Virus record (IMG/VR): IMGVR_UViG_3300045988_062794
Reading direction: 5' to 3' (one strand)
Source: a virus
Length of the DNA: 64,000 nucleotides
Program-made: the position numbers and the translations under genes
In this document: positions 42,397 through 62,030 of the stretch, one piece after another
Layout of the letters: each line of letters starts with the position of its first letter
Position numbering within the stretch: the stretch's first letter is position 1
Notes under the pieces: model-generated
What the model was told of the DNA's origin: nothing
The model's input: the letters and a program-made list of their open reading frames with translations, nothing else
Databases searched by the model: none

Positions 42397-42539
42397 AAAA
42401 ATAGAAATCTTCCATATACTATTACTTTAGATATTAGTAGTATAATCCAGAGTAAGGAGTAATGGTTGATATTACTTACTATCTCTATATATACTCTCCT
42501 ATCTCTCTACTCTAGACATAGAGAGTAACGAAATATATA

Positions 42540-42716
42540 TTAATTTTGTTCTATTTCTATCAAATATTTGTGCAATATGTCACTCTTATTATCTCCTTTA
42601 TTAGCGTATTTTACTACTTTATACTTAGCGTTTCTACCAATAACAGGCCAATATTCTGTTGTATAATACTCTTCTATTACTTCTTTTTCTCTATTTGATT
42701 TACAATTTTTTAACAT
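42540..42716 (-). CDS. hypothetical small protein (58 aa, below the ORF-track cutoff)
   Basis: Hand translation gives MLKNCKSNREKEVIEEYYTTEYWPVIGRNAKYKVVKYANKGDNKSDILHKYLIEIEQN. Confidence 0.3.
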   Translation of the reverse strand: MLKNCKSNREKEVIEEYYTTEYWPVIGRNAKYKVVKYANKGDNKSDILHKYLIEIEQN

Positions 42717-42736
42717 CTTTTAACTATATTTAACTA

Positions 42737-42967
42737 TTATACAAAACTCATACTATCATGAGTACCATTTGTGTTCTTACAAAAGAGTTCACAGCCTGTC
42801 ATATATTCTGATATAAGCTCCCCTGGTGTATCTGTTTCTTCTATATAAATCTCTAAGATATCACCATTTTCATATACTTTTTGATATGTTTTATAGCTCC
42901 AATCTCCTACTTTATTATCTTTTACTTTGGTAAAACCGTGCTGTTCTAACCACTCTGAGCGTGTCAT
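42737..42967 (-). CDS. hypothetical small protein (first gene of the minus-strand block)
   Basis: 76-aa ORF adjacent to the divergent switch region. Confidence 0.5.
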   Translation of the reverse strand: MTRSEWLEQHGFTKVKDNKVGDWSYKTYQKVYENGDILEIYIEETDTPGELISEYMTGCELFCKNTNGTHDSMSFV

Positions 42968-43183
42968 TTTAACATTATTTAATTATTTTTAACATATAGC
43001 TTCTAACGTACACATAAAATTTTTGTTAAAAATATGTAAAAAATAAAAATTGAGCGCAAGGAGAAATTTGAGAGAGCGGGAAGTAGTATATAATTGCCCT
43101 CCCCCTATCATAAGTGAAAGGAAAGTCCCCCGGGGGTTCTCAATGCATCAAGCTGTGTTTTGGGCTTGTTATTTGCTTTAATA

Positions 43184-43233
43184 ATGCATCAAATTGGTTA
43201 ACTTATTTGTTTATTGTGATTATTAACGTTTCA
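43184..43233 (+). promoter_or_regulatory. conserved early-promoter-like motif, copy A
   Basis: ATGCATCAA…N20…ATTGTGA in the same register as copies B and C, about 65 nt upstream of 43297. An extra ATGCATCAAG box sits at 43143. Confidence 0.4.
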
Positions 43234-43296
43234 GCCACAGCGGAAGGCGGTTGTGGTGTAGTACTACTACTGAAGGGTAGATAGCCGAGAAGAAAG

Positions 43297-43704: not shown

Positions 43705-43743
43705 GAGTAAGGGCTTCGGCCCTTCTCTTCATTCTTTTGTTTT
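43703..43743 (+). terminator. intrinsic terminator
   Basis: aagggc-TTCG-gccctt with an extended gagag/ctctt stem, then attcttttgtttt. Confidence 0.6.
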
Positions 43744-43750
43744 CTACGAC

Positions 43751-43800
43751 ATGCATCAAGTCCTTTTCCCTCTTAGCAGATTGTGAGGAGTATATTATAA
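43751..43800 (+). promoter_or_regulatory. conserved early-promoter-like motif, copy B
   Basis: 38 of 50 ungapped identities with copy C: ATGCATCAAGT…CCCT.TTAGCAGATTGTGAGGAGTATATTATA. Confidence 0.5.
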
Positions 43801-44072
43801 AGTGTATATTTCTCATCATATTTATATTTATTTATATTCTTATGCCTAAACAGGTGATATTAGCCAGTATCATCGCTTTAAGTAAGAGTGTAGGCTAGTA
43901 GAGAACGGCATCTCTACGAAATCAGTAGCTATTGGTTAAACCTCTTTAGAAAAGGACTACTGAGCTATTATCCTTTGATAGCAAGCTTGATACCGAGTGA
44001 CTCTCGGTTGCATGTCGTAAAGACCAGGTAGGTGGTATAGTCAACTGCATCTAGACTACCTGGTTTACTTTT
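43801..44072 (+). ncRNA. candidate small structured RNA (promoter motif B to terminator, no convincing ORF)
   Basis: Five consecutive hairpins at 43898-43917, 43923-43961, 43964-43982, 43992-44008 and 44023-44063. The last is followed by ttacttttg. Confidence 0.35.
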
Positions 44073-44099
44073 GATTATTAATCAATAAAATTATATATT

Positions 44100-44282
44100 A
44101 TGATAGCAGTGGTAAGATGCTATAAGCACATAACTCCGGTAATTGTTACAGTATTTGAAAAAAACGATGAACAAACTCAGAAAGATGCTCTAGAAATGGC
44201 TACTATCTTAAGTAGAAGAGACAACTGTGAGTATAGAGTAATGGTAGAGTATTGGGTTGCGTTTGGTACTCCAGCAAAGTAA
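44100..44282 (+). CDS. hypothetical small protein
   Basis: 60-aa ATG-initiated ORF followed by a terminator-like hairpin. Confidence 0.4.
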   Translation: MIAVVRCYKHITPVIVTVFEKNDEQTQKDALEMATILSRRDNCEYRVMVEYWVAFGTPAK

Positions 44283-44291
44283 GCTATTTAT

Positions 44292-44328
44292 AAGGTGTTG
44301 GTTTTGCCTTCACCTTATTTACTTTCTT
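44292..44328 (+). terminator. intrinsic terminator-like hairpin
   Basis: aaggtg…cacctt (44292-44316) followed by atttactttctt. Confidence 0.45.
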
Positions 44329-44331
44329 ATA

Positions 44332-44381
44332 ATGCACCAAGTTAATTACCCTTTTAGCATATTGTGCGAGATATAGTATAC
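44332..44381 (+). promoter_or_regulatory. conserved early-promoter-like motif, copy C
   Basis: ATGCACCAAGT…CCCTTTTAGCATATTGTGCGAGATATAGTATA lies 150 nt upstream of 44534. The leader hairpin gaggatt/aatcctc follows. Confidence 0.5.
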
Positions 44382-44533
44382 TTATAAGCGTACGAGAGTA
44401 TTAGAGTATGAGGATTAGATAATCCTCACCTTTCATCTTTTTCATCTCTTTCTCTTATTACTCTTTACGCCTATATATAATATATAGCGTATCATAGACA
44501 ATTAAACAATTAAACAACTAAATTATCAAAATT

Positions 44534-45154: not shown

Positions 45155-45168
45155 TAATCATGAGAATG

Positions 45169-45200
45169 GCTGGTCTTAGTGATCAGCTGTTCTTTTTTTC
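45169..45200 (+). terminator. intrinsic terminator
   Basis: gctggtc-ttagt-gatcagc followed by tgttcttttttt. Confidence 0.7.
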
Positions 45201-45231
45201 AATTTACAAACGATAATCTGTATATTGTAAT

Positions 45232-45432
45232 ATGAGACAGTTAAATTCATTAGAAGAAAATGCTTTAAAGATTTCAAAATACTCTACAATAGCATTTGTT
45301 ATATTCTTCTTTTTCTTTATAGGCTTTGTTGCAGAGTCTGTACGCCCTTTATACATATTGGGTGGACTAATGCTTATAGTATGGAAATACATAGCATACG
45401 TTGCTATAAAAGATCTATTACATATTAATTAG
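45232..45432 (+). CDS. small membrane protein (two hydrophobic segments)
   Basis: 66 aa containing IAFVIFFFFFIGFV and LYILGGLMLIVW. I prefer it over the antisense ORF 45204..45392 because of strand context. Confidence 0.45.
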   Translation: MRQLNSLEENALKISKYSTIAFVIFFFFFIGFVAESVRPLYILGGLMLIVWKYIAYVAIKDLLHIN

Positions 45433-45434
45433 TC

Positions 45435-45659
45435 ATGAGTAAGAAGAAATATCACAAGCAAAATTGCAATAGCTCAGTACGTGCTGTTGTACATTTAGGT
45501 AATGAAATTATTTCATTAATAGGGACACATGCCTTTGAATGGTCTATTGTAAAACAGACTAAGAATAAGGTAAACATTCTCACATTCTCTAATAGAGAAA
45601 TGGCTGTTAAGGATTTTGAAAAATACAAGAACTTAGAGCATGAAAGCGGAAAGAGGTAG
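45435..45659 (+). CDS. hypothetical small protein
   Basis: 74-aa ORF. Confidence 0.45.
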   Translation: MSKKKYHKQNCNSSVRAVVHLGNEIISLIGTHAFEWSIVKQTKNKVNILTFSNREMAVKDFEKYKNLEHESGKR

Positions 45660-45882
45660 TTTAATTCAGCAATTAATAGGTAGAAAAATAACTATTATAA
45701 GCTGTAATTTAGTCGGTACAGTTATATATGCAGAGATTGCTAAACAGAGTAGATCTGTAAATATACTATTAAGGGTTAAAAGACTTGATAAATTGTCCTA
45801 TAAGAGCATTACAGAAGATAAAGAGATATCTCTTAGTCTTACAGGCTTATTAAAGGATGTCAGGTTACATGCCTTAATATAA
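45640..45882 (+). CDS. hypothetical small protein
   Basis: 80-aa ORF overlapping the previous gene by 20 nt. Confidence 0.45.
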   Translation: MKAERGSLIQQLIGRKITIISCNLVGTVIYAEIAKQSRSVNILLRVKRLDKLSYKSITEDKEISLSLTGLLKDVRLHALI

Positions 45883-46073
45883 CTTTTATTGAACTAATTA
45901 TTCATTAAAAGACATAGTCTTATAGAAAGACAATATCCGAATTAACTTGTTGAATATGTAAATTATAGACTCTATCTCGGATAACATGTGAATGGACTAG
46001 AGATTATCTTAACCAGAGTAAGATTTGCTTGACGGCATTATATCATTACTCTGGTTATTTTAAACTAATCAAC

Positions 46074-48499: not shown

Positions 48500-48850
48500 C
48501 AGTTTACAACTTCATTATTTCTTCAGTGGCTGTACTTGCATGCGAATGTAGGTGCAGTCGTCCTCAGAAAATGACAAACCTGTGGGGCGTAAGTAACTAA
48601 GTAGTAATACTATAATGTCAGTATGTAGTATTACACTGAAACTGACTGTTATGATCGTGCGGACGTAAAAATCAGGTAGATGATAAGAATTGTACTGACA
48701 ATACAATTCTGCTGTATCTTAAAACAAGTTTTGATAGTCAAATTTTCCTAAACCAATCCTCGTTATTAGGTAAAATTTCTTTTTGTTTACGTATTGCTAC
48801 AACAATACACATCTGTTATGTATTTATTTTGCATTGTAGTTGTAGATACA

Positions 48851-49437: not shown

Positions 49438-49689
49438 CTCGCCAGTTATAACTCTTTTATTAATAACTCTAAAGTTAACGCTTATGAGTATGGTGGTTAT
49501 CCCCAAGCATGTTAAACCTAACGCCCTAAACTCACTAAAATGTATATGAAGATATATACTACGAGTTGTGTATTTATATACAAATGACATAGTAAAAGTT
49601 CTATGTTAATTATAAGAAGGAAAGGAGGTAAGATAGGAATAAGGAATAAGAATACTATCTCATGCTTTTTACTTTAGAAACTTATTTGT

Positions 49690-51591: not shown

Positions 51592-51657
51592 GATAATATA
51601 GTTCAATGGTAGAATAATGCTTATGCATAGATCTGGGTTCAAATCCCAGTATTATCA
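51592..51657 (+). ncRNA. tRNA-like element 2 (66 nt, anticodon arm replaced by 4-bp/tetraloop hairpin)
   Basis: gataata-ta-gttc-aatggta-gaat-a-atgc-ttat-gcat-agat-ctggg-ttcaaat-cccag-tattatc-a. U8, A14, G18G19 and TTC…C61 are all in place. Confidence 0.6.
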
Positions 51658-54522: not shown

Positions 54523-55941
54523 ATGGGAAAGAATAAAACAGCAGCAAAGAAGGCTGCACAAGAAAAAGCAGTAGAGACTAAGCAAGGCGAAACTAAAGCC
54601 AAAGTAGAAACAAAGGTAGTAGAAACAAAGGAAAAACCTACAATTAAGGTTGATCCGAAACCGGCTCCTTCACCAACACCAGCACCTAAAGCTGAAGAAA
54701 AACCTACCGAAGAAGGTGGTGTACAGGTTGTTTCTCCTGTTGAACAGTCCTCTGCTCAGCTATCCGCAGAAGTATTCCAGAATGAGGATTTGCGGACGCT
54801 TTTGATGAAGGATGTGCTTACTCCAGAAACTACTATTGATGCAAATCATATGGTAGAGCTGGCAAAAGTTGCAACTGAACGATTCAAAACAAAGGATCAG
54901 AAAGATCCGCGCGTAATCGCAACTAATGAAATGATTGACGATGTAACTGCGTATTGTCTTGCACTTGCAGGAATCAACATGCAGATTCATGGTAAAAAGC
55001 TTGGTTTGTCTGTACCGGTTGAAGCTACCGCAAGTTTCGTACGAACTATGGGCTTCTTCGGTGTAGCTTTGCCTGAAGGTAAAGCAATCGAGGATCCTAA
55101 GAATCCTGGTCAGATGATCTTGCCCTTTGAAGCTTCTGAAGAAGCAGTGAAAACTGTAAAGGAAGAGATCAAGATTCAGAAGAGTAAACCTACGATGGAT
55201 CCGTCATTGTGGAAGAGTGATGACGATGCTAAGAAAGCAGTTCGTTATATCATGTCTGATACCTTGACTAAGGACAATCGCTTCTTAGTTTCTATTTCAA
55301 AGGTAAGAATGTACAAGATGCTTACTTCAGCTAACGAAGACGAAAAGAAGATGTGGGAAAACTCCAGCAATGCTGTTATCCTTGAAGTTATCTTCAACAT
55401 CCTCGGTGATAGCAAGTCAACATTAATGAATGCTATCGGTGGTCAGATTTATTCCGCAGCAGCAACTCGGAAGAATCCAGTCTTAAGCCATCTTATAGCT
55501 AAGCGTAACTTCTCGCAGTTTAGTGACGAAGATATTCGTGATATCACGAAGGTATTCGTTAAATTTAAAGCTGCGGATAGCTCTAAAGACCCTCTTGAAA
55601 ACAACATTGCCTGGGTTGGCTTAACTCAAGGTAAGAAAGAGGATGCTTTACTTTATCCGAAACGTCTCAGTGACTTCGATAAGAATGTGATGAACCGTAT
55701 TGACAACTTATATCCGGACAAAGTTGGCGTACCATCTGATCCTGATTATCGTAGAAAAGCTTCAAACTTGATGATAACGATTATGAACCTGTATAAGGAG
55801 AATGATCTGCTTCCTCAGGTATCTGAAACTGATTACAAACAGGCTGTAGAAGATGCTGTTAAAGCAACTTCAGGTGAAACTGCTCCGAAAGAAGAACCCA
55901 AACCAGCCGAAGACAAAAAGGATAAAGGAGAAAAGAAATAA
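54523..55941 (+). CDS. hypothetical protein with K/E/P-rich termini
   Basis: 472 aa with GC-richer codons. Both the N- and C-terminal regions are low-complexity and lysine-rich. Confidence 0.6.
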   Translation: MGKNKTAAKKAAQEKAVETKQGETKAKVETKVVETKEKPTIKVDPKPAPSPTPAPKAEEKPTEEGGVQVVSPVEQSSAQLSAEVFQNEDLRTLLMKDVLTPETTIDANHMVELAKVATERFKTKDQKDPRVIATNEMIDDVTAYCLALAGINMQIHGKKLGLSVPVEATASFVRTMGFFGVALPEGKAIEDPKNPGQMILPFEASEEAVKTVKEEIKIQKSKPTMDPSLWKSDDDAKKAVRYIMSDTLTKDNRFLVSISKVRMYKMLTSANEDEKKMWENSSNAVILEVIFNILGDSKSTLMNAIGGQIYSAAATRKNPVLSHLIAKRNFSQFSDEDIRDITKVFVKFKAADSSKDPLENNIAWVGLTQGKKEDALLYPKRLSDFDKNVMNRIDNLYPDKVGVPSDPDYRRKASNLMITIMNLYKENDLLPQVSETDYKQAVEDAVKATSGETAPKEEPKPAEDKKDKGEKK

Positions 55942-55957
55942 CTCCTAAATCAAAAGG

Positions 55958-56350
55958 ATGAGCCGTTTAACAGATTTTCTTTGGTGCGTATTGTTCGCTT
56001 TTGCAGCGGTTATTATTAGCATCAAATTGAGCCCACAAAGGGTAGAAGCTGTTGAGGTTAAACCTCATTACGAGCTTACAATTCCTAAGGTCGAGCCTAA
56101 GTCTTTTAACTTAGAGCTTGACCTCTCTAAGGGAACAGCGAGAGTAGAAAGTGACGCAGGAATCAGTAACGCTAACGTTACAGTAAATCACCCTGCACCA
56201 CAAGTAATTAACAAACCTGCAAAGGTTAAAATTAAGAAAGTATATGAAACAAAAACTGAGGTGTTGTCGAAGGTCGTGATGTTTAAAATGCCTACCCCAC
56301 GATTGATTCACACAACAACACCTGAGTATCCTACAAGGGTAGTGAAGTAA
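55958..56350 (+). CDS. N-terminally membrane-anchored protein
   Basis: 130 aa with the TM segment FLWCVLFAFAAVIISI. Confidence 0.5.
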   Translation: MSRLTDFLWCVLFAFAAVIISIKLSPQRVEAVEVKPHYELTIPKVEPKSFNLELDLSKGTARVESDAGISNANVTVNHPAPQVINKPAKVKIKKVYETKTEVLSKVVMFKMPTPRLIHTTTPEYPTRVVK

Positions 56351-58644
56351 TTAACATTGTGCTTACTGTAGAATGGCACCAGGGAAAACGAGTCTACCCC
56401 TGTAGTAAGAAGATAGATAGTGGTATTGTAGCTGATACACTTAAAAAGCAATAAAATCAGCGTATATAAATTACGATAAATCTGATCAATTTATGGTTTG
56501 TATAGACAAGTAATACAGAATACGAGAATATGATAACAGCTAACACTGTGATTCAAAAGGTAGTATAATAACTTGCTGTGGATTTATTACTTTATCCATG
56601 AAGAATCAGCAAGAAAATGGGTAACGGGTATAACCCATAAAGCTCGAGAACCGTCTGGTGGAGCGATTACAACACGGCACGTAGGTCAGCAGACACGAAG
56701 GCAAAGTATACAAATGGGGTACAAATCCTTAAGTAAGTAGAAATGGCAATTCTACTGAATCCCCAATAGAGTCTGTAGGTACTATCAAGTACGGCATCAC
56801 AGAAGGACGAAAAGGGTTAATTATCGTTAGAATTCCAAACTAATGATAGCCGTTTAGACTGACTAACGTCTTCGATGGGTCCAAACTATCGTTAAAAATA
56901 GCTACTTCTAGTGTTCTACTCTACTGTTATTACTGCTTTGTATTACAGTAATAAAGATCTTGACAACATAACATATGGTATAGTTATGGATGAGTATGTG
57001 AAAGGAAGGATTCAAACCAAGAAAATTAATAATCGAAACTAAAAGCTGAGTGGCTATGATCCATACAAAGTTAAAGAGGTAACGGACTTTAATAGCGTAT
57101 GACAGATTATCCGGAGCAGGTGCCAAACCTGTGCTTGAGAAAGCTTATTAGAATGTTCACTTAGCCTTGCAAACTAAGTTAAATAGTTCTTTTAAGGGGG
57201 TATTCCAGGTGCTAGGTCTAGATTATGTGGGAGAGATTACCACGTCTTTGCGAAATCAAGGATTAAGAAAGGTATAAGGTTTGAAGAACAGTGACCGAGT
57301 TTTGTGCTTACATTATTTAATGAGAGTTATGTCACTATAAGTCATGGAAACTAAGCACACAGTGGTAAAAGTACTGAGAACTACTACCAAACAACAGAGG
57401 TGCAGTAGCGATGCACGTTGTACGCAATAAAAAAGGAATCCTACCGCCTGCGGTGTTTTAAAGGTGTAGGTAAGTTTAGTTAAAGCTTTCTTTAATAGAT
57501 ATAACGAAAGTGGGGCTAATGTATAGTCAATGGGCTAAATTCAAGTCTGTTAATCCAGAGAAATGTAAATGTTACGATGTTTACCTGAATCCAACGATTC
57601 ATCACTGGCTCGAGAGTTAACGAGACTCTTAAATAAAAGCGTGGATAACATGTCTAACTAACGTAGGTCCAAAAACCGAATAATAAATCTGTGGAAGTCC
57701 TCGCTAAGGAAACTGACTGCGACCACAGCTTGGCGAATGCGATTGCTTAGTAGTATCAGGGTATAATGCGCAACATTATATGTCCGAGAGAAAGCGTCTC
57801 ATTGAAGCTTATAGACCTTTAAGAGTGAACCTAATAGGGAAACTATACTTATAGACCTGTCATAAGCGAGAGTAGATGAGAAGAGGTGAAAGTCCTCAAT
57901 CTTCAACCAAGTAAAATAAATAAAATCCTAGTCATGGTTACGTTGGCATCCCTATACTTAGTAATAAGTATTATATGGCGTAAGAAGTAGGTATTAGTGA
58001 ATAACTATATGAATCCTATAAGTTATTACAAATAACAAAGAATGATGAAACTTACTTCATTCACTTCGCAGTTTTAGTAACGTTCTGAAAAACGACCGGA
58101 CATAACTACTTGCCCGATAGAGAGTTTTATTTTGTTGCCACATAAAATAATTATTAGAGGTCAATCTCTGGATAATCTAAAAGTTAGGCAGTTGTACGCT
58201 GTTTTATGTGAGTGCAGTTGGTCCTGAGACACCAGGAGAACCTTGGCAAAATATTACGGATCCTCTATGATAACGATTGTAGAGTATTTCACACATATTG
58301 ACTGAACTAAGAGAATCCTTCGAAGAGTCTCATTAGCTCTGGTCATAAAGCGATTTGATAGTTCCAAAGTAAGATAAATAAGTAATTTTGTAGTATCTGT
58401 CTCATATTATAAAAGGATATAGCAATAGCATAATATCAAGAAAGTTTATCTCGCTTCTAAAACAAATTAAAGTAAAAACAGTTTCTTTTCGTATTTCTAT
58501 CTCAGTATCTCTTGAATGAGACACGACCGTGGTTTTAACCTATCTGATATAAGATGATGATAAATCGTGCATAAAAACAAAGAGAAGAATACGGAGCACC
58601 AATTAAAATTATTATTAACAAACTTATCAAAAGGAGAAAATAAA
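56351..58644 (+). other. ~2.3-kb ORF-free region, candidate large structured non-coding RNA locus
   Basis: The only track ORF is a 72-aa antisense one. All three stop codons are dense in sampled plus frames. The central ~56600-58360 is GC-richer, purine-rich and full of 6-9-bp local helices. Confidence 0.4.
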
Positions 58645-59211
58645 ATGGCAAATATCAATTATAGTTTAGTAGTTGCATCTCAGTTAGGTGCACTTTTAGG
58701 AATGAATCTCATTCACATTCGTCGCAAAAATGTAGATCCCGACTATTCTAACAAAGAACGGGAAGGTAAACAACGTCTGGCAATTCCAGTATATATCTAT
58801 GGTATTGACCGTATTAAGATTAAGAAAGCTGAACTTGTAGACCTTGGTGAAGGTCAGCGGATTGTTCAGTTTAATGATGATCCGAAATTGCAGTTATCTC
58901 TGGCAAATGCAAAAGATATCACAGATGTTATTAAGAAACCAACTGTTCAGGAGGTTGCGAATGCTGTAATGGCTGAAGAAGCCAGTGCGCAACAGACGTT
59001 CTTTGTAGACGACAAAACTGCAACAGAACTTGCGGTTTCCTTTAACAACAGATCGTATAAGGAACTTTCCTCCATGATGGAGGTGCTCTCACGTCAGGCA
59101 GCCTGTTTAACGGATGCTAATGACGCTATGATGAATGCTTGCAAGTTAGAAATGGCACAGGTAGGTAAAAGTGTCGATTTCGTTCCCATTAACGTTAATG
59201 AAACAAAATAA
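58645..59211 (+). CDS. hypothetical protein
   Basis: I prefer the ATG at 58645, which is preceded by aaaggagaaaataaa, over the track's GTG at 58567. Confidence 0.55.
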   Translation: MANINYSLVVASQLGALLGMNLIHIRRKNVDPDYSNKEREGKQRLAIPVYIYGIDRIKIKKAELVDLGEGQRIVQFNDDPKLQLSLANAKDITDVIKKPTVQEVANAVMAEEASAQQTFFVDDKTATELAVSFNNRSYKELSSMMEVLSRQAACLTDANDAMMNACKLEMAQVGKSVDFVPINVNETK

Positions 59212-61964: not shown

Positions 61965-62030
61965 TTGTGTATAGTTTAATGGTAGAATATCTCGAAAGAG
62001 AAGATATGAGTTCGAGCCTCATTACACAAC
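61965..62030 (+). ncRNA. tRNA-like element 4 (66 nt, anticodon arm replaced by 4-bp/GAAA hairpin), paralogue of 51592..51657
   Basis: ttgtgta-ta-gttt-aatggta-gaat-a-tctc-gaaa-gaga-agat-atgag-ttcgagc-ctcat-tacacaa-c. All helices covary with element 2 while the loops are identical. Confidence 0.6.

Follow-up and report, generated by a model that had tools for sequence, protein, structure and literature searches.

How does a phage genome that is otherwise densely packed with genes come to keep 2.3 kb without one? The question is raised by positions 56351-58644 (+ strand) of a stretch of viral DNA from IMG/VR record IMGVR_UViG_3300045988_062794, the whole 64,000 nt of which we call the window. 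A preliminary description of this block, made from the letters alone, had proposed a giant structured RNA locus, and strong strand-specific covariation upholds that proposal, with sequence comparison also pointing to one transcript. Our answer is that the block is almost certainly a structured RNA locus on the + strand, judging from the pattern of substitutions, and that it probably encodes a very large non-coding RNA (ncRNA) with several domains and a pseudoknot, specific to the phage family Suoliviridae and read in the same direction as its neighbours. That this product would be a single RNA of at least 1.7 kb is a view towards which we lean, with slightly less assurance. The parts of the locus on which the argument turns are these.

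56351-58644 (+): block free of open reading frames (ORFs), between a 130-aa ORF (55958-56350) and a 188-aa ORF (ATG at 58645)
56352-58100 (+): conserved structured core of ~1.75 kb, bounded by the first hairpin that covaries and the last motif that is invariant in the family
58101-58644 (+): 3′ part of the block, AT-rich and weakly conserved except for TTGAAT at 58512

The first step is to show that the block does not encode protein. As had been described, its longest ORF in any frame is an antisense one of 72 aa (56908-57126), and reassignment of stop codons cannot rescue a gene: stops of all three kinds occur in all six frames, 38-69 per frame, and no frame exceeds 111 aa when any one of the stop codons is read through. 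The block is the longest ORF-free stretch in the window (2213 nt, against at most 858 nt elsewhere). Alignment of the window with its two closest full-length relatives, used for all tests of periodicity, indels and rates, shows substitutions without three-base periodicity in the block (chi-square 0.3-3.3, against 31-74 in the larger flanking coding sequences (CDSs)). Between none and three of the 4-14 indels per segment are divisible by three (2/5 in one segment), whereas in most CDSs nearly all are. Parts of the block evolve two to four times more slowly than the flanking genes, and segment 57551-58000 carries 0.09-0.15 substitutions per nt, compared with 0.33-0.38 in genes. Absence of periodicity, non-triplet indels and slow change together establish that the block is non-coding and under purifying selection, and thus neither a spacer nor a pseudogene.

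The second step concerns the distribution of the block. By blastn the window belongs to the Suoliviridae, a family of crAss-like phages, and its closest reference, cr10_1, has 74% identity across 96% of the block. A gap of 1.9-2.5 kb is found at the same syntenic position in 15/15 Suoliviridae genomes examined, which represent five subfamilies and were sampled in the gut of humans, macaques and pigs and in one human airway.

Boorivirinae (cr10_1, cr1_1, cr55_1, cr50_1): unannotated gap of 2.46-2.51 kb between the same genes
Uncouvirinae: cr115_1, 2.2 kb; cr118_1, 1.9 kb
Bearivirinae: cr6_1, 2.1 kb
Loutivirinae: cr52_1, cr4_1 and cr53_1, 2.1 kb
Oafivirinae: cr130_1, cr7_1, cr273_1 and a Bohxovirus, 2.0-2.2 kb

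Gene order around the gap is constant—an ECF-type sigma factor, a small protein, a ~470-570-aa protein, a ~130-aa protein, the gap, and then proteins of ~190 aa and ~175 aa—and nhmmer profile searches show the gaps to be homologous, collinear and on the + strand across subfamilies. The preliminary description had named a coding gene in relatives, a lack of covariation, or hypervariability or absence in close relatives as findings that would speak against an RNA; what relatives have instead is the same non-coding gap, conserved and covarying. Searches with the downstream protein or with a 22-mer from the core found the element on ~130 IMG/VR contigs, which form 22 lineages when clustered at 97% identity and 12 when clustered at 90%. 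At least 37 metagenome loci (37/80 sampled), many of them on contigs of ~95-106 kb, match the model of the 5′ domain presented below over its full length. All carriers are Crassvirales/Suoliviridae genomes or contigs of ~95-106 kb, and two clusters of a neighbouring protein hold 1,101 and 2,203 sequences. GenBank/RefSeq records of cr10_1, cr7_1 and the Bohxovirus place CDSs inside the locus (L001 4077-4262; L173 11397-11879, − strand; L175 11357-11863, − strand). The antisense CDSs annotated there are probably spurious, as they have in-frame stops or are not conserved between genomes, and the annotation of several reference genomes is thus in need of correction.

The evidence that carries the case for RNA is covariation. 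An unbiased scan of all column pairs of the family alignment yielded eight stacks of at least four pairs with scores of 75-133, against a maximum of 41 for shuffled columns. The outcome was the same with two further alignments, 20-30 shuffles each; depending on the alignment, the eight helices scored 61-190 and shuffled columns at most 41-59. More than 15 helices, one pseudoknot included, show compensatory base changes. Formal tests on three domains gave 94-97% pairing compared with 68-75% in shuffles (0/500 in each case), and 26-67% in controls in which the pairing partner was slid. In the covarying helices there are 30 G:U and 1 A:C, an asymmetry that places the pairing in + strand RNA rather than in DNA or in an antisense transcript. 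The sequences of the arms are themselves free to change: those of a helix spanning 182 nt read CTTGG/CCAAG, CAAGC/GCTTG or ACTGC/GCAGT in different lineages, and other helices have at least seven complementary arm pairs. The three domains are composed as follows.

Domain D1, 56508-56664 (+): pseudoknotted, with six nested helices and an inner stem that aligns poorly
D1 helices (+): 56520-23/56563-66, 56536-39/56546-49, 56572-78/56607-13, 56617-21/56634-38 and 56642-45/56661-64
D1 pseudoknot (+): 56508-15 with hairpin loop 56585-92, 98.8% paired over seven pairs, 7/8 compensatory
Middle domain, 56905-57008 (+): closing helix 56905-09/57004-08
Domain D3, 57729-57911 (+): closing helix 57729-33/57907-11, span 182 nt
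D3 hairpin 57761-68/57774-81 (+): GCAA loop
D3 hairpin 57883-86/57894-97 (+), here helix 5: loop UGAAAGU

For D1, 94.3% of cells are paired in alignment A5 compared with 74.8±1.1 after shuffling (0/500), 27/38 pairs are compensatory, and slid partners reach 38-51%; RNAalifold by itself predicts 15 pairs in this domain, 11 of them compensatory. A covariance model (CM) of D1, R1, has exactly one full-length + strand match per Suoliviridae gap in the five subfamilies. It recognises lineages outside its training set (cr118_1 with 78 bits, Oafivirinae with 46-83 bits) and has no match in the E. coli rRNA used as a control. In CM alignment A9, which covers the five subfamilies, compensatory changes are seen in 26/26 pairs. 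Pairing there reaches 96.8% of cells compared with 70.4% in shuffles, and a conservative measure that counts further pair types is also above all shuffles. The last D1 helix, 56642-45/56661-64, encloses the invariant word GAGAACCG (56646-53) and the pair 56651-52/56657-58. The closing helix of the middle domain directly flanks invariant TAGTGTTC (56909-16) and an ATGAAGG-type motif; in alignment A12 it is 93.9% paired compared with 67.8±3.2 (0/500), with a covariation of 0.738 against 0.241 and 44-67% pairing when slid. D3 is 95.8% paired in alignment A6 compared with 74.1±1.6 (0/500), with 13/17 compensatory pairs, and 96.2% against 73.1% in the wider CM alignment A11, with 16/17. Its model, R2, matches four subfamilies and metagenome lineages.

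Some candidates were discarded. A helix of 1.64-kb span, 56431-36/58068-72, came near the null threshold in two scans and is inconsistent across subfamilies, so it was not accepted; the candidate 56804-08/57697-701 is likewise unsupported, and an additional D3 helix, GCTTAT/ATAAGC, was dropped as inconsistent. Cross-subfamily MAFFT alignments of D0 and of the middle domain gave no RNAalifold consensus. Outside the Suoliviridae, crAss001, a cultured phage of the Steigviridae, lacks both a 2-kb gap and any match to R1 or R2. The largest unannotated gap of crAss001, of ~0.9 kb (L296 42966-43870; 95965-96869 of the record), adjoins the TROVE/Ro60-like gp96 and could be a Y-RNA-like locus; it too is negative for both models.

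Covarying helices are also found beyond the three domains, one of them inside the upstream gene. The remaining helices and motifs, in 5′ to 3′ order, are listed here; helices 1 to 5 are the local helices of the preliminary description.

56259-56323 (+): 9-bp hairpin 56259-67/56315-23, within the 3′ end (last ~30 codons) of the 130-aa ORF
56359-62/56376-79 and 56380-84/56398-402 (+): two 5′ hairpins, with three and five distinct complementary arm pairs among lineages
56822-30/56840-48 (+): helix 1, a variable-sequence hairpin whose arms differ wholly between lineages and are still complementary
56927-35/56946-54 (+): helix 2, a hairpin in the middle domain, with a compensatory G-C to A-U change
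57062-65/57098-101 (+): helix, fully paired in 13/15 lineages, six distinct complementary arm pairs
57117-21/57127-31 (+): hairpin, fully paired in 21/22 lineages, six arm pairs, above the null in scans
57304-10/57352-58 (+): helix 3, closing ~41 nt, with weaker support
57689-94/57723-28 (+): helix 4, enclosing conserved GGAAGUCC
58077-58097 (+): 3′ motif pair GTAACGTT / AAACGACC, with hairpin 58081-84/58091-94, loop CUGAAAA
Family-invariant words (+): GAGAAT 56524, GAGAACCG 56646, TCCAAA 56880, TAGTGTTC 56909, GTAACGTT 58077, AAACGACC 58090

The hairpin at 56259-56323 is compensatory in 8/9 pairs among Boorivirinae and scores 128 against a null maximum of 41-59. On our reading of the alignment it falls on variable codons between the conserved protein motifs VMF..PTPR..PEYP, and the large RNA may have its 5′ boundary or a processing site there. 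The five local helices described earlier are all present where they had been placed; compensatory changes support four of them, and helix 3 was followed by eye only. For helix 1, arm pairs in register include TATCGTTAG/CTAATGATA and CTTATATTA/TAATATAAG, and further variants seen by eye are CAAACA/TGTTTG, ACGTAG/CTACGT and ACGTGG/CCACGT. Those of helix 4 are CTGTGG/CCACAG, TTGTGG/CCACAA and CCAGGG/CCTTGG in register, and ATCGAG/CTCGAT in cr50_1 by eye. The arms of helix 3, also read by eye, are GTGCTTA/TAAGCAC in the window and ATGTTC/GAACAT in cr10_1, with full pairing in register in the window only. A conserved TGAYWGATTA (57101-10) adjoins both the helix 57062-65/57098-101 and the hairpin 57117-21/57127-31. 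Near the 3′ end of the core, hairpin 58081-84/58091-94 is paired in 16/22 lineages, with arm variants CGTT/AACG and TGTT/AACA.

Two side observations concern these elements. In the window, D1 has a CUGAAAA-type internal loop at 56599-56606 (AUGAAGAAU), which in Loutivirinae is a terminal hairpin loop, and it recurs at 58085-58091 in the conserved 3′ hairpin CGUU-CUGAAAA-ACG; such a recurring loop may be a repeated binding or docking motif. Within D3, an 11-nt direct repeat, CTTATAGACCT (57808-57858), brackets an insertion of ~40 nt found only in the lineage of the window, cr10_1 and L052, and repeat and insertion together look like a local duplication.

Signals drawn from the composition of the block fared less well than those drawn from comparison. 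The block is purine-rich on the + strand, as had been described (GC skew +0.06 to +0.27, AT skew also positive). Its GC content of 0.35-0.42, which had been described as raised, is above that of the 3′ flank but not above that of the upstream CDSs (0.39-0.44). The claimed packing with GAAA-type motifs dissolves on shuffling: GAAA occurs 21 times against 21.9 expected, GNRA 92 against 93.9, and GGAAAC 3 against 0.7. The direct repeats pointed out earlier are in place but at chance level, a repeated 9-mer pair being expected in 2.3 kb. Consensus scans likewise found promoter-like and terminator-like sites in the block at chance level.

What the RNA might be was approached through known families. 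Comparison by cmscan with all 4227 families of Rfam 15, at gathering and permissive thresholds, produced no match to the block at gathering score in the scan of the window. The sole match at E≤10 in 55900-59000 was an MS2 hairpin within the downstream CDS, due to chance, and nothing reached E≤1 in the gaps of five relatives. The earlier description could not match the block to a family by eye, in agreement with these scans, and the block is not GOLLD, ROOL, OLE, a group I or II intron, RNase P or rRNA as these are currently modelled. A self-splicing intron was discarded since no model matches, the upstream ORF has its own stop, and the downstream one has its own ribosome-binding site and ATG (a Shine-Dalgarno-like AAAGGAG, read directly in the sequence, precedes ATG 58645); the two are separate genes in all relatives. 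In the literature we found no account of a large non-coding region or RNA in Suoliviridae, with the proviso that a report in a subscription journal remains possible. The element is not described in the comparative genomics of crAss phages (PMC7886860), the Crassvirales review (PMC10136315) or the survey of structured RNAs in the human microbiome (PMC8040213). The locus nevertheless has the general marks of a structured ncRNA gene, being non-coding and conserved with strand-specific compensatory changes, and it appears, from these comparisons, to represent a new class of very large structured phage RNA that matches no known family.

Comparison with the ornate RNAs is instructive. GOLLD, in which many members are longer than 800 nucleotides, is like the present element in being encoded by phages or prophages, very large, elaborately structured and recognised via covariation, and in combining a universally conserved part with a more variable one and with internal variable linkers (PMC12286853). 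It differs in size, the conserved span here being ~1.75 kb in a gap of 1.9-2.5 kb, about twice GOLLD, and in setting, since the present element belongs to Suoliviridae (Crassvirales) and is fixed between protein genes rather than beside tRNA islands. ROOL (Rumen-Originating, Ornate, Large) is also phage-associated, has multiple pseudoknots and no known protein partner and comes from gut or rumen habitats; some of the metagenome contigs that carry the present element may likewise stem from rumen. A ROOL example measures 659 nt (PMC12286853), compared with ~1.75 kb here, and ROOL lies near tRNA islands and is unrelated in sequence and secondary structure. GOLLD and ROOL form RNA-only cages, and ornate RNAs have recently been shown in unprecedented RNA-only assemblies (PMC12286853). 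Loops that covary as palindromes mark intermolecular kissing in GOLLD and OLE, and the invariant GUUAAC and CUCGAG around 57610-57622 are candidates for such loops here. The parallel with tRNA-adjacent GOLLD and ROOL drawn in the preliminary description is weak, the nearest Rfam tRNA matches lying 4.7 kb upstream and 3.3 kb downstream, with none by ARAGORN. OLE is similar in being a large ornate ncRNA in which many invariant nucleotides are held by covarying helices, and it differs in that no model match is found here. It is a chromosomal RNA of extremophilic bacteria of ~600 nt. As a ribonucleoprotein with dedicated partners it also offers an analogy for the conserved flanking proteins here, which would be hypothetical partners. 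The UG27 locus is likewise phage-encoded, non-coding and found through coevolving base pairs (preprint 10.64898/2026.09.22.753630), and it is present in some Crassvirales-related phages (PMC9226505). It consists of repeated ncRNA units beside a reverse transcriptase (RT), neither of which the present element has.

Is the block then one RNA? D1 and D3 are each present in a single copy per genome, at a distance of 1030-1296 nt and with order and strand constant; the words invariant in the family extend over 56524-58097; and the length of the gap stays at 1.9-2.5 kb. This order and spacing argue for one functional unit, from which we infer one transcript: the conserved ~1.75 kb (56352-58100) would be a unit transcribed as an RNA of ~1.75 kb or more. 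The 3′ remainder (58101-58644) may be a tail of this RNA or a spacer with expression signals of the 188-aa gene. Several observations weigh against our explanation as a whole. No covarying helix joining the 5′, middle and core domains was found in the scans, and R2 is below threshold in Uncouvirinae and in the Bohxovirus, which means that the architecture is not uniform. Folding energy in 300-nt windows on both strands gives z ~0 compared with dinucleotide shuffles, so that the local helices listed earlier are not, taken alone, beyond chance; the flanking CDSs score lower than the block in these minimum free energy z-scores. Neither fold nor family could be recognised for the conserved neighbour proteins, which thus give no clue to function, and the Suoliviridae were uncultured as of a 2023 review (PMC10136315). 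Prevotella jejuni has been predicted as the host of Bohxovirus (PMC12697116).

The alternative that survives best is a tandem cluster of smaller RNAs—for example ~300 nt at the 5′ end, ~250 nt in the middle and ~450 nt in the core—separately processed or transcribed, which we consider unlikely though deserving of attention. It would account for the lack of a proven inter-domain helix, for linkers (56700-56870, 57140-57300 and 57930-58070) that are indel-rich and poorly conserved, and for a 5′ domain that is universal while the core model misses Uncouvirinae and the Bohxovirus; moreover, the Hatchet and RAGATH-9 RNAs of the same operon could process transcripts. Independent RNAs are, however, hard to reconcile with domains whose order, strand and spacing are fixed, and with a gap length held over deep divergence. 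Internal promoter and terminator signals do not exceed chance, no ribozyme or other Rfam family matches inside the block, and GOLLD and ROOL contain variable linkers as well (PMC12286853).

An improbable alternative is a giant cis-acting leader between cistrons, controlling translation, stability or termination of the 188-aa and 172-aa genes. The neighbours are all on the same strand with no terminator on either side, the same two genes always lie directly downstream, and the final part of the upstream ORF carries a covarying hairpin, all as a leader would have it. The most conserved parts, however, are 0.6-2.2 kb away from the downstream start and the adjacent 500 nt are the least conserved, and the pseudoknot and many invariant loops resemble stand-alone RNAs. 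Known leaders in bacteria or phages are about ten times shorter, which we count against this explanation.

Far less credible is an element acting as DNA, such as a replication origin, a packaging site or a regulatory region. The block does lie just upstream of the replication module, and it is non-coding and conserved. However, G:U is tolerated on the + strand only (30 against 1), unlike what double-stranded DNA or symmetric cruciforms would show, and this strand asymmetry largely refutes the idea. The pseudoknot and the 182-nt-span helix covary, no iterons, direct or tandem repeat families or CRISPR array were found in the block, and cumulative GC skew climbs steadily without a turning point.

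A divergent member of a known family (GOLLD, ROOL, OLE, introns, RNase P or an rRNA fragment) or a UG27-type template array is just as hard to credit. The element is encoded by a phage, as GOLLD and ROOL are, and the short motifs GGAAGUCC, GGUGAAAG and GAGAACCG seem to resemble conserved regions of RNase P RNA and 23S rRNA, a likeness rejected on comparison with the E. coli sequences. Family-invariant words of at least 7 nt are absent from E. coli 23S, 16S and rnpB; blastn alignments to these have E≥5 at best and are scattered and not collinear, as checked with shuffles. Against any known family there is also the lack of a match in Rfam 15 and the fact that the flanking ORFs are complete genes, not exons. 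A UG27-type array was excluded, since the block has no repeated units and at least 5 kb to each side of it is free of an RT.

Finally, hidden or decayed coding—through a reassigned stop, introns or frameshifts, or as a pseudogene—can practically be dismissed: some Suoliviridae do reassign TAG or TGA, delta-group phages have group I introns (PMC10136315) and annotators have put small or antisense CDSs in the gap of three genomes, but stops are frequent in six frames, no reassignment of one stop or of two yields more than 111 aa, and neither the periodicity of substitutions nor the lengths of indels fit a gene. The block is more conserved than real genes, unlike a pseudogene, and no intron family matches.

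If the block is indeed the gene for one very large ncRNA, the following picture can be drawn. The RNA would be made on a transcript shared with the genes upstream of it, with trimming perhaps at the covarying hairpin that the 130-aa ORF carries in its 3′ end. Helices of variable sequence would hold in place a set of invariant single-stranded motifs (GAGAACCG, TAGTGTTC, TGAYWGATTA, GGGCUAAAUUCAAG, GUAACGUU...AAACGACC), which may be sites of tertiary contacts or of ligand or protein binding. The pseudoknot, the GNRA-capped hairpin and the invariant loops flanked by covarying stems are features that we count in favour of a trans-acting architecture. The likeliest role, a speculation by analogy with GOLLD and ROOL in which our confidence is low, would be that of a trans-acting architectural or catalytic RNA during infection. 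It might fold into a large RNA-only or RNA-protein particle acting on a host or phage macromolecule, rather than serve as an antisense or cis regulator. That a single RNA of ~1.75-2.2 kb works as such a higher-order RNA-only or RNA-protein machine (a cage, a scaffold or a ribozyme) needed in infection is a tentative idea, to which we give somewhat less than even credence and which again draws on these analogies.

The block belongs to a rightward operon, in which the gene for the phage sigma factor precedes it and replication genes follow; the latter include an AAA+ ATPase here and a DNA polymerase and a helicase further on in relatives. A Hatchet self-cleaving ribozyme (48560-48677, +, 85 bits) and a RAGATH-9 RNA (49493-49670, +, 92 bits) belong to the same operon, 7-8 kb upstream of the large RNA, and this phage region is unusually rich in structured RNAs. 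Two 66-nt Rfam tRNA matches (51592-51657, 59 bits; 61965-62030, +, 48 bits) may be atypical or truncated tRNA-like genes; ARAGORN found no tRNA or transfer-messenger RNA (tmRNA) anywhere in the window, and the immediate neighbours of the block are protein genes in all genomes. In several Suoliviridae references an annotated tmRNA is found ~1-1.5 kb upstream of the sigma-factor gene.

Annotated tmRNAs: L073 1-227; L172 6472-6862; L173 6628-6984; L174 6165-6534

In cr115_1 the tmRNA is ~1.7 kb upstream of the sigma-factor gene and is cut at the edge of the locus, and the window has RAGATH-9 and Hatchet upstream instead. Three further stretches of ~0.8 kb in the window lack an ORF of at least 90 aa (42427-43284, 43705-44521 and 45155-45968). 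Among nine flanking proteins, Pfam and PHROGs recognise the sigma factor and the AAA+ ATPase only. The 472-aa neighbour has no sequence match in Pfam, PHROGs or the PDB; its AF2 model (predicted local distance difference test (pLDDT) 60.7) consists of a confident helical domain with disordered Lys/Glu-rich ends, and this helical fold is an orphan whose Foldseek matches are Suoliviridae orthologues only. The 188-aa neighbour gave a low-confidence model (pLDDT 61, predicted TM-score (pTM) 0.37), and the 172-aa neighbour no match.

What would such an RNA mean? RNAs that are both large and ornate, such as GOLLD, ROOL and OLE, are rare, and the locus adds an unrelated class that is apparently about twice as long. 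Should it prove to be one RNA, then at about twice the length of GOLLD it would exceed every other structured non-ribosomal RNA known from bacteria or their viruses, and the range of sizes known for such RNAs in the prokaryotic virosphere would widen. For structural biology it offers a well-defined target with an alignment that is ready for use. Kept throughout one family of crAss-like phages and present in thousands of public sequences, it would be a giant viral RNA of a new class, carried by a phage group that is among the most abundant in the human gut, and, for phage biology, a conserved component other than protein in the early or middle programme of an uncultured family.

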